Sequence record: PV611058
Origin: Escherichia phage WPEC3
DNA: 64,000 nucleotides
Direction: 5' to 3' (one strand)
The position numbers were made by a program, and so were the translations under genes. This document shows positions 27,170-27,656 of this stretch, piece by piece (within the stretch, counting starts at the first letter, position 1; each line of letters opens with the position of its first letter). Below the pieces are notes generated by a model. That model was not told where the DNA came from, did no database searches, and worked only from the letters and a program-made list of their open reading frames with translations.

Positions 27170-27622
27170 AAAAAAGAGACAATTAAGTCTCTTAATTCTT
27201 GACGCTGATGGTTTCAGCATTTATTGTATTGCGAATTTCTTAAAATTCATTAAGAACGAAAGCGGGTTGCTCTGTTTCTCTCTATCGCAGTCATGTGCAA
27301 CGGTCGTCAGTCTTAATCATCCTGACACTCACCTGAAAGTCTATACAATCAAACTTCAGGCTGTTTATTAAATCACTTAATAAACTCCCTTAGCAAATCT
27401 GGTAAGGTGCGATCCTTATACATCTATCGAGGAACTCTCTGTATGCTTATCGGAGTTCTTTATTGAGCCGTGTCGCCGTGAGGGGTTCAAACTATGCCCA
27501 CATCTAACGGGTTTCTTCTGCTCATCGCACTGTTGAACTGCTCATCTGCCATCTACATTTTCGATAGGATCAGGTTCTAATTTATATGCATTTCTGCATT
27601 CAACAGGATTGTCATCACTACA
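27170..27622 (-). ncRNA. candidate non-coding early transcript (about 450 nt) bounded by promoter and terminator
   Basis: Minus-strand promoter at 27629-27656, minus-strand terminator hairpin at 27174-27193 plus U-run; longest minus-strand peptide about 21 aa; several stable hairpins. Confidence 0.3.
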
Positions 27623-27628
27623 ATTAAC

Positions 27629-27656
27629 ATTATAGCACCAAATTCAAAAGTGTCTC
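27629..27656 (-). promoter_or_regulatory. sigma70-like early promoter (GAGACA-N16-TGcTATAATG)
   Basis: Reverse complement gagaca-16nt-tgcTATAATg; shares ttggtgcTATAAT with the gp55 promoter. Confidence 0.4.

Follow-up and report, generated by a model that had tools for sequence, protein, structure and literature searches.

A structured RNA gene of 121Q-like jumbo phages and enterobacterial islands as a candidate RNA-primed replication origin

In the genome of Escherichia phage WPEC3 (record PV611058), a gap between the gene for endonuclease VII and a small open reading frame (ORF) had been read, from the sequence alone, as the possible site of an early non-coding RNA (ncRNA) of ~450 nucleotides (nt). 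Is there an RNA gene at this locus, and what might it do? We addressed both questions in a 64,000-nt stretch of the genome (the window) and in its relatives. Positions 27657 to 27115 (minus strand) almost certainly hold the gene of an undescribed ncRNA family of ~450–510 nt, with ~17 helices, three pseudoknots and its own extended –10 σ70-type promoter, as judged from comparative sequence analysis. The core of the sequence-only reading, a structured minus-strand ncRNA gene with its own promoter and terminator, is strongly supported by covariation, promoter conservation and the absence of a conserved ORF. Yet the unit is wider than first described, is one of four or five paralogues, and is shared with enterobacterial islands. 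Its anatomy is distinctive: three pseudoknots, a movable terminator, a hairpin with a run of six guanines (G6), co-varying heptamers and regular genomic spacing. As to function, we favor, at a probability of about 0.35, a role in cis, in which the unit would act at its own DNA locus as an RNA-primed (R-loop) replication origin.

The RNA gene and its fold

Compared by blastn with 50,697 phage records, the stretch matches Escherichia phages EC.P1, Ecwhy_1 and BF17 at 99–100% identity, and 121Q and PBECO4 at 95%. Identity is 66–78% for phages of Salmonella (Munch and 7t3), Klebsiella (fENko-Kae01), Erwinia, Serratia (BF), Yersinia (fHe-Yen9), Pectobacterium (CBB), Cronobacter (GAP32) and Xanthomonas (XbC2), and RaK2-like Klebsiella phages match in part. 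All matching phages are myophages of 345–385 kb, and on the basis of these matches we assign the window to an Asteriusvirus-like (121Q-like) jumbo phage, not to T4. Every matching phage record contains four or five matching places. Two pattern scans of IMG/VR and an nhmmer pass yielded 58 full-length copies of the element, 52 of them distinct, with a mean identity of 64% and a minimum of 48%. These 52 copies underlie the conservation figures that follow.

A consensus scan of the minus strand finds GAGACA-16-TATAAT with an upstream TG. The promoter (27629–27657) comprises an upstream box, TGAGACA (27657–27651), a 16-nt spacer, TG at 27637–27636 and the –10 hexamer TATAAT at 27634–27629, and transcription is predicted to start at ~27622. 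Promoter-like matches taken alone are not above chance here (8 found, 12.6 expected). Across the family, TATAAT is present in 52/52 copies, TG in 50–51, and a TGRRACR box at the fixed 16-nt spacing in 49–51, so that the σ70-like promoter seen earlier on this strand is confirmed both by the scan and by conservation. Its class is 'TGAAACG + TATA'; according to the CBB paper, promoters of this class in CBB and GAP32 lie mostly upstream of DNA-synthesis genes. The timing first proposed, early in infection, is thus no more than a possibility.

The intrinsic terminator at 27168–27193 (minus strand) consists of a 7-bp hairpin (27193–27174) and a U-run (27173–27168). It lies ~450 nt downstream of the promoter, as the sequence-only reading had it, and its stem covaries; terminator-like sites in the region number six, against 1.5 expected. 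Promoter and terminator do delimit the unit in the window copy, but not in the family, where the terminator is optional. It follows the RNA body in ~23 copies, stands directly after the –10 and before the RNA body in ~19 (type B copies), is absent from ~10, and is never found at both ends. About 29 of the 52 copies thus have no 3' terminator, and in all copies conservation continues ~60 nt past this point. A riboswitch-like terminator/antiterminator switch was considered and rejected: the terminator stems vary freely, and a covarying upstream partner was not seen.

The expectation that no ORF would exceed ~21 codons proved only roughly right. Minus-strand ORFs of 24 and 21 amino acids (aa) lie inside the region, but longer ones occur as well: a 49-aa ORF on the minus strand (27220–27071) runs out of the region, and an 81-aa ORF on the plus strand starts with TTG (27126–27371). 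The non-coding reading itself holds, as no ORF is conserved across copies. The longest one differs in frame, strand and position between homologues, and reaches only 45 aa in the 95%-identical 121Q copy, in which the 81-aa ORF is interrupted. In the window, its length is within shuffle expectation (81 versus 57 ± 16), and indel lengths in the family are not biased toward multiples of three. GenBank records under several blastn hits (H5, H7, H15, H21, H22, H26–H29 and H31–H34) annotate one to three 'hypothetical proteins' over the locus; such calls over RNA loci are almost certainly spurious. The stretch is also richer in G+C than its surroundings, as noticed before, with 0.42–0.44 at 27300–27599 versus 0.27–0.35 in the flanks.

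We derived a fold by hand from representative paralogues, together with a search for covarying column pairs, and tested it on a MAFFT alignment of the 52 sequences (alignment A1, with the window copy in row 1). The fold comprises 17 helices and 92 pairs, three pseudoknots included. Standard pairs fill 88.3% of cells, versus 72.8 ± 0.4% when the 3' partners are shuffled (0/500 shuffles reach the observed value) and 40–44% when partners are slid by 1–3 columns. Changes on both sides are seen in 66 of the 92 pairs; compensatory cells number 719 versus 208 in shuffles, and the covariation score is 0.438 versus 0.167. In helices P4, P5, P6, PkA, P13 and P14 every cell is paired (100%), and a single position shows up to three or four types of pair. 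G-U pairs are frequent, which fixes the RNA strand as the minus strand of the window. Lower scores for P1 (72% paired in this alignment) and outer P11 arise because MAFFT misregisters these helices, and compensation is clear by eye, for example in P1: CUGUUGAA/UUCAACAG versus CUGAAAGG/CCUUUCAG versus ACAACGG/CCGUUGU. The window sequence alone has a minimum free energy of –110.9 kcal/mol (z = –2.4 against shuffles). Hence the several stem-loops first noticed in the stretch are real features of the RNA, supported by folding energy and by covariation across related phages.

The 5' domain (27527–27611; all coordinates of the RNA are on the minus strand) is built from P1 (27606–27599/27537–27530), the P2 hairpin (27598–27587), the bulged P3 hairpin (27573–27546) and P4 (27541–27539/27529–27527). 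P3 carries the conserved loop GAAAAUGUA and is 89% paired, with compensatory changes in 7/8 pairs; P1 forms the first pseudoknot with the loop of P4. In the central domain (27363–27524) lie P5 (27524–27520/27468–27464), P6 (27510–27507/27479–27476), the variable P7, P8 (27458–27453/27437–27432), P9 (27418–27414/27407–27403) and the variable hairpin P10 (~27384–27364). These are joined by conserved junctions, AGAAGAAAC, GGCAAUNCGGC, UAUAAAG, CGAUAGA and CUAAGGGAG. P8 corresponds to what had been described as a 9-bp stem at 27428–27463. The stem is real and covaries strongly (93% paired, up to five pair types per position), but it has 6–7 bp rather than 9. Some copies close P6 with a UUCG loop, and optional modules can replace P7 or P10.

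The 3' domain (27197–27362) is the most conserved part of the RNA. It contains P11 (27360–27350/27343–27332), P12 (27326–27322/27310–27306), P13 (27289–27285/27234–27230), P14 (27282–27278/27262–27258), P15 (27256–27250/27243–27237) and P16 (27218–27204). The pseudoknot PkA (GUUGC/GCAAC; 27301–27297/27270–27266) runs across P13 and P14, and PkB pairs the P11 loop with the strand after P13 (27348–27343/27229–27224; 94% paired). Double-sided changes are numerous in PkA, P13, P14 and PkB. The peripheral hairpins P2, P7, P10, P12 and P15 vary in length, and one recurring optional module, AAUUUUG-GUACAAUAUAGAUCCGUC-CAAAAUU, is located at P10 or at P15, depending on the copy. Such roaming of peripheral modules is behavior typical of compact tertiary folds. 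The family signature combines the promoter (TGRRACR-16-TGnTATAAT), the P1/P4, PkA and PkB pseudoknots, the invariant words GACCGU, GAAAC and ACCCGC, and a G6 hairpin between two identical heptamers. The window copy carries all of these features.

Does the RNA belong to a known family? The 4227 covariance models of Rfam 15 include RNase P, tmRNA, group I and II introns, ROOL, GOLLD, HEARO, OLE, raiA, 6S and riboswitches, and at gathering threshold none hits the whole window. At E ≤ 10, the region draws only scattered weak small RNA and small nucleolar RNA matches, on terminator-like parts, and no family recurs inside the element across 19 homologous loci. Nor did full-text literature searches turn up any account of this RNA. 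Within the reach of Rfam 15 and the searchable literature, the family is undescribed, and whatever its function it represents a new class of large pseudoknotted bacterial and phage RNA.

Inspection brought up short-word likenesses to RNase P (ACAGAG..AACCCGC) and to the hammerhead (CAGAUGAG/CGAAA). Group I introns interrupt a host gene and place a P4–P6 domain between the 5' strands of P3 and P7. The element, by comparison, is free-standing between genes with its own promoter in all copies and has no Rfam Intron_gpI match, and its sole P3/P7-like pseudoknot (PkA/P13) leaves just 7 nt between the two 5' strands. The intron (group I or II), RNase P and hammerhead readings were dropped because the helix order misfits and Rfam is silent. 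ARAGORN finds no tRNA or tmRNA gene in the window, in agreement with the earlier failure to see a tRNA cloverleaf. The analogy once drawn with the stable RNAs near the T4 tRNA cluster does not survive: the genome is that of a jumbo phage, no tRNA cluster lies nearby, the four or five paralogues are dispersed, and copies occur in bacterial islands.

A dispersed family with a conserved 3' module

Downstream of the terminator lies a 3' module (27115–27163, minus strand) consisting of hairpin P17 (27163–27140), a spacer and a second copy of a short repeat. This module is present in all 52 copies. P17 carries GGGGGGAUG at 27150–27142, invariant or nearly so in 52/52 copies, and its G6 (27150–27145) is invariant. 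The four 121Q copies align from the promoter to ~60 nt beyond the position of the window copy's terminator, ending in the hairpin TTCATTCCCCTGCGGGGGGATGAA and, after it, CAACAAATCCCGTCAAG. Neither word is seen in 121Q away from the four RNA loci, and each appears a single time in the window. Variation in P17 is confined to the pyrimidine arm (C/U) facing the invariant G6 and is wobble-compatible on the RNA-sense strand. Such one-sided change fits an RNA of the sense strand, or a hairpin of the displaced strand, and not a symmetric protein-binding palindrome.

The G6 hairpin is flanked by two repeats. Motif 1, GCGTCAAGA (27205–27197), lies at the 3' side of P16, and motif 2, CCGTCAAGT (27123–27115), follows the hairpin, 60–95 nt downstream of motif 1 across the family. 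The two change together. Pairs observed (motif 1/motif 2) include CGTCAAG/CGTCAAG, TCGTCAG/TCGTCAG, CCGTCAG/CCGTCAG, CGTCAAA/CGTCAAT and GCGTCAG/GCGTCAG, as well as CTTCAAG/CTTCAAG in RaK2, CGACAA/CGACAA in a Serratia copy (L085) and ACGAAG/ACGAAG in a divergent metagenomic group (L157). Heptamer position +1 is identical in 51/52 copies, and flank identity is 100/156 versus 63.9 ± 4.3 in shuffles (0/10,000), the sequences being related. Different heptamer states coexist within one genome, so a single trans-acting reader of changing specificity would be insufficient. We found no conserved complement to the heptamer anywhere in the RNA that could act as an internal guide. Some step seems to need identity of both sites within each unit, judging from these substitutions; the concerted evolution of two heptamers around a G6 hairpin matches no described mechanism known to us. 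On the opposite strand, both repeats read as –35-like CTTGACG boxes (27199–27227 and 27115–27160, plus strand), each 17 nt from a weak –10-like hexamer, TATTGT and TTTCAT, respectively (e.g. TTGACG-17-TATTGT at 27199–27227). Short antisense transcripts from these boxes are conceivable, going by consensus resemblance only.

Where do the copies lie? In 121Q there are four, all on the plus strand and all in annotation gaps, at 90.3, 192.8, 247.5 and 326.6 kb. The last is the window copy; the window holds no second one, the other three of the genome falling outside it. Five copies each are found in GAP32, CBB, Serratia BF, Yersinia fHe-Yen9-04 and several uncultured relatives; they form five orthologous clusters that are syntenic across genera, at ~30, 95, 175, 260 and 338 kb. 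RaK2 has at least one full copy, syntenic with the 193-kb copy of 121Q. Since the paralogues form orthologous syntenic sets across genera, each position has been kept, and among 35 close relatives we saw no presence/absence polymorphism. All copies lie on the strand that carries the majority of genes, including the window copy, although it sits amid genes of the opposite strand. Gaps between copies measure 53–86 kb in the five-copy genomes. This spacing is more regular than random, with P (standard deviation of gaps ≤ observed) of 0.001–0.004 in five-copy genomes and 0.03 in 121Q, values that are not independent between related genomes.

The family also extends beyond phages. A degenerate pattern from the most conserved core, which matches 44/52 known copies, picked out 16 stretches among 185,579 species genomes and a further 93 in metagenomes; of these 109, 90 proved to be homologues by nhmmer. 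Full-length bacterial copies occur in Serratia fonticola GTA-SR07 (a complete chromosome), Silvania hatchlandensis, Enterobacter chinensis, Serratia sp. 2723, Enterobacteriaceae RIT714 and some metagenome-assembled genomes. Two of 5,426 complete E. coli genomes carry a copy, within a 1.4-kb unannotated gap of an island beside ffs. The recurrent context is a small integrative island with a single RNA copy. A large serine recombinase (~550 aa) or a tyrosine integrase (399 aa) is followed by the co-oriented RNA, a convergent cI-like S24 repressor, a cro-like winged helix-turn-helix (wHTH) protein, 286-aa and 138-aa proteins without assigned function, and a DNA invertase. In S. fonticola, rof is followed by the RNA, a ParB/RepB-like gene, an ORF and a serine recombinase. 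Searches with Pfam, PHROGs, NCBIfam and PADLOC recognize only integrases, the cI-like repressor, the cro-like wHTH protein, an LprI-like protein and the invertase; among the differing cargo genes they reveal no replication initiator or defense gene.

Promoter, fold, G6 hairpin and both heptamers are all retained in the bacterial copies. Phage-like contigs with a G+C content of ~42% (metagenome loci L157, L128, L118, L113, L158 and related ones) carry a divergent subfamily that retains only the 3' domain (P11–P16) and the G6/heptamer module, joined to an unrelated G+C-rich 5' half; this points to the 3' half as the functional core. Among cultured phages, a search for this subfamily matched only the conserved core of the same jumbo phages, and none outside that clade was found to carry it. 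The family is common to lytic jumbo phages and to small integrative islands in the bacteria they infect, a link that hints at satellites or defense islands aimed at jumbo phages. With 52 distinct sequences from cultured phages and IMG/VR and ~90 metagenomic or bacterial ones, ~150 are in hand, enough for three-dimensional modeling, cryo-electron microscopy and E. coli genetics.

Two island loci deserve mention for their surroundings. On the S. fonticola chromosome (L087), two tandem rof genes (Rho-termination modulator; 4775–5038 and 5227–5490) adjoin the element made up of RNA, ParB and serine recombinase, and this duplication may mark the element's insertion site. In E. coli LR-29-1 (L184; 7753–18303), the island of ~10 kb next to ffs (4.5S RNA) holds, besides the RNA copy, IS3, an integrase fragment, DUF4326, DUF488 and dual-OB-fold genes and a small recombinase. 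One hypothetical protein of this island weakly matches the PADLOC candidate PDC-M01B.

A candidate replication origin and competing readings

No origin has been mapped in the 350-kb RaK2/121Q-like phages, and an evenly spaced, multi-copy RNA unit is a concrete and testable candidate. In the mechanism we propose, host RNA polymerase would initiate at the conserved promoter, and the folded RNA body would keep the transcript off its template or recruit replication proteins. A hairpin and U-run before or after the RNA body would throttle the number of polymerases reaching the 3' module, and those that pass the optional terminator would transcribe it. There, the invariant G6 run, set in a genome of 34% G+C, could nucleate a persistent RNA–DNA hybrid (R-loop) next to an A+T-rich stretch. 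A phage-encoded RNase H might then process the hybrid RNA, which the T4-like replisome would extend the way transcription runs. The twin heptamers might be donor and acceptor sites for transfer of the 3' end, which is pure speculation, or twin recognition sites.

Among the readings considered, an RNA-primed R-loop origin is the one that accounts for most features. G-rich runs nucleate persistent hybrids in ColE1 and mitochondrial DNA, and T4 starts replication from promoter-driven R-loops. The 121Q/RaK2-like phages encode a T4-like replisome, UvsW/X/Y and RNase H. That all units point with most transcription is expected if the first fork moves with transcription. A single terminator anywhere before the G6 module, and never two, would set how often the module is reached. 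Also in favor are the multiple syntenic, co-oriented and regularly spaced copies, the conservation past the terminator, the co-varying heptamers, the A+T-rich stretch after the unit and a promoter class otherwise seen ahead of DNA-synthesis genes in CBB and GAP32. The islands that bear an integrase and the element that bears ParB, moreover, need an origin, and an initiator gene is not recognizable in them.

In function, such an origin would resemble ColE1 RNA II, T4 oriF/oriG and the RNA-based origins of mycobacteriophages, while being homologous to none. ColE1 RNA II acts in cis without an initiator protein: its G-rich RNA forms a persistent hybrid with the C-rich template and becomes the primer through RNase H. 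Like our unit, the RNA II of ColE1/pMB1 is a structured transcript of ~550 nt from its own σ70 promoter, with a G6 run and a small GAUG...CGUC hairpin near the 3' end, then an A-rich stretch. In the ColE1 sequence that we inspected, the run lies in ...GCTCGTCAGGGGGGCGG..., which we take to be ~20 nt before the origin. The corresponding G-rich run is found here, as GGGGGGAUG, in every copy. Short words near the 3' end (GAGCGTC...TTTTTGTGATGCTCGTCAGGGGGG) are, however, the sole sequence resemblance. Unlike RNA II, the unit has a fold with three pseudoknots, co-varying heptamers around its G6 hairpin, a terminator upstream of the G6 module and several copies in a lytic phage, and control of the RNA I/Rop type is not evident. 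A bacterial copy has no blastn match in PLSDB (72,556 plasmids).

The T4 origins oriF (uvsY) and oriG (gene 34) share with our candidate a T4-like replisome, UvsW and RNase H, and their dispersal at several places per genome. According to work from the Kreuzer laboratory, a transcript from a non-early-class promoter reportedly primes leading-strand synthesis at these origins in the direction of transcription. A T4-type origin would call for a non-early (middle-mode) promoter whose transcript stays hybridized in a downstream unwinding element. The unit has a promoter of a class associated with DNA-synthesis genes in CBB and GAP32, and an A+T-rich stretch (G+C 0.29) follows it; GC skew is uninformative. 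But T4 origins consist of a middle promoter and an unwinding element of ~50 bp, have no conserved structured RNA and are not mutually homologous, whereas the RNA family has a 450-nt conserved fold in four or five homologous copies. Replication of mycobacteriophage parABS prophages needs no Rep protein: a non-coding transcribed region next to the partition genes is both necessary and sufficient for it (Wetzel et al. 2020, PMC7157519). The S. fonticola copy similarly adjoins a ParB/RepB-like gene; the mycobacteriophage cases differ in having hosts among Actinobacteria and in being single-copy origins of extrachromosomal prophages, and a sequence relation is not known.

Several observations weigh against an origin. 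A globular RNA of 400 nt with three pseudoknots, junctions and swappable modules is not needed by known RNA-primed origins, and is more typical of ribozymes, ribonucleoprotein scaffolds and binders of ligands or proteins. A good terminator stands between the promoter and the 3' module in ~80% of copies. The regular spacing is one evolutionary event common to related genomes, and could arise because only direct repeats that are far apart survive recombination. GC skew in 121Q follows gene orientation only, with nothing at the four loci, and nhmmer --max with the family profile finds no hit in ColE1 at E ≤ 10. In the islands, the RNA lies between the integrase and the cI/cro pair, a place unlike that of the origins of known satellites, and homologues of the island proteins are lacking from the phage (no tblastn match in 121Q). 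Finally, transcript, R-loop and replication start are all predicted only.

A bolder form of the origin reading, which we regard as rather doubtful, would make this a new type of origin. A large pseudoknotted cis RNA would hand its 3' end from one heptamer to the identical one across the G6 hairpin, by primer or strand transfer, and so start DNA synthesis at four or five even sites of a 350-kb genome. The single-copy islands, with their integrase and SOS-type repressor, would then be satellites of jumbo phages that copied the origin RNA of their helper for amplification by the helper replisome.

The most serious alternative, possible though on balance not our choice, is a globular RNA that acts in trans as a ribozyme, protein-binding scaffold, decoy or self-assembling particle, an enterobacterial counterpart of ROOL and GOLLD. 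Several copies would then mean dosage or specialized variants, and islands would carry the RNA as a 'moron' gene. ROOL and GOLLD are orphan large structured RNAs of 0.5–0.8 kb with ornate pseudoknotted folds, likewise found in phages and prophages, so that size class, fold and setting are all alike. The three pseudoknots, the long invariant single-stranded junctions and the modules that turn up at different positions (the GUACAAUAUAGAUCCGUCC hairpin) recall large ribozymes; the window copy is a self-contained promoter–RNA–terminator cassette; and the mobile contexts are unrelated, with no conserved protein neighbor. Yet Rfam gives no match, ROOL and GOLLD included, and unlike those RNAs the family has Enterobacteriaceae hosts, no adjoining tRNA genes, evenly spaced paralogues and a conserved module past the terminator. 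A trans-acting product also leaves unexplained that module, the required identity of two heptamers, a strong terminator directly after the promoter, and the retention of four or five diverged paralogues at syntenic, even and co-oriented sites. Phages of this clade do make abundant long ncRNAs, as seen in PA5oct, a related Pseudomonas jumbo phage with four abundant ncRNAs defined by RNA-seq (ncRNA001–004), one of them 451 nt (PMC7318152). Two of its RNAs, ncRNA001 and ncRNA002 (8263–8498 and 21951–22401 of L028), each follow a σ70-like promoter and end in a terminator. Homology to our family was rejected after inspection of these two revealed no shared motifs; as a further difference, two of the four PA5oct RNAs lie inside the terminal repeat.

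Less probable still is a cis-acting leader that controls transcription, either by processive antitermination as in HK022 put or by response to a phage factor at the TGRRAC box as with lambda Q. Modified polymerases would pass the built-in terminator and drive long downstream units, with one module per ~70-kb block of plus-strand genes. The put RNAs of HK022 are ~70 nt long, form two stem-loops just downstream of the promoter, and act in cis on the transcribing polymerase, with a terminator downstream. Our unit shares structure at the RNA level, placement just after the promoter and a downstream terminator, and a leader would account for one terminator, never two, after the promoter or after the RNA, for co-orientation with the bulk of genes, for regular spacing and for conservation just past the terminator; read-through is unavoidable in copies that have none. 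However, the RNA is seven times larger than put and resembles it in neither sequence nor fold, and the RNA of type B copies, whose terminator comes first, cannot act on that terminator. Moreover, the window copy points into convergent genes, downstream genes have early-type promoters of their own, and the island RNA converges on the cI gene. A selfish or conflict element, either a mobile cassette (with heptamers as target-site or recombination footprints and HNH nucleases for homing) or an island mimic that hijacks or jams a phage function, is about as unlikely as such a leader. Lytic jumbo phages do share the cassette with islands whose integrases (serine or tyrosine) and cargo differ, the island hosts match the phage hosts, a hairpin-bearing segment is flanked by direct repeats, and three of the four 121Q copies lie ≤ ~1.5 kb from an HNH-family nuclease gene. 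But the copies are ancient, syntenic and free of polymorphism among close relatives, the repeats enclose the 3' module and not the whole cassette, genes for a reverse transcriptase or transposase are absent from the vicinity, and the fold is under strong purifying selection, which implies that it serves the carrier. That the locus is not an RNA gene at all, being instead a region that is degenerate or codes for a small protein, or a repeat acting as DNA (protein-binding sites, for example), is close to refuted. The 'hypothetical proteins' annotated in some records and the 81-aa plus-strand ORF would speak for it, but the ORFs are unconserved in frame, strand and position and equal shuffle expectation, compensatory base-pair change is massive and includes strand-specific G-U pairs, and the promoter is invariant at a fixed distance. 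What probability remains falls to something we have not considered.

The surrounding locus

The element sits between the endonuclease VII gene on one side and, on the other, a small ORF and a baseplate-hub gene that converge on it. The nuclease gene (27751–28242, plus strand; 163 aa) is divergent from the RNA, and its 121Q orthologue, gp594, is annotated as 'DNA endonuclease VII'. The small ORF (26704–26913, plus strand; 69 aa) is orthologous to 121Q gp595 and is closed by a hairpin at 26907–26948. Both genes are context and not part of the unit. The hairpin resembles a bidirectional terminator, its stem measuring 12 bp when read on the plus strand and 10 bp on the minus strand. The convergent plus-strand genes at 25799–26913 end at it, and read-through out of the RNA unit would be stopped there too.

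Between the unit and these convergent genes lies an A+T-rich non-coding spacer (26950–27114; G+C 0.29) with the repeated words TGAGTTA and AACGAAT. It is partly alignable with promoter-bearing downstream regions of other copies, and could be an unwinding region or a decayed early promoter. A conserved downstream block, 'TGAATTGAG...AAAATTCTTTGACA', was considered as part of the unit and set aside, being mostly a general early-promoter architecture with an UP element that is present elsewhere in the genome. The early region of 121Q has another unannotated gap of ~2 kb (135194–137161), unrelated to the RNA family by blastn. The nuclease genes near three of the four 121Q copies are gp170 (91320–92108), gp513 (246019–246630) and gp594, that is, two 'HNH endonucleases' and the endonuclease VII. 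These genes may encode homing endonucleases that have settled next to a highly conserved target, or they may lie close by chance.

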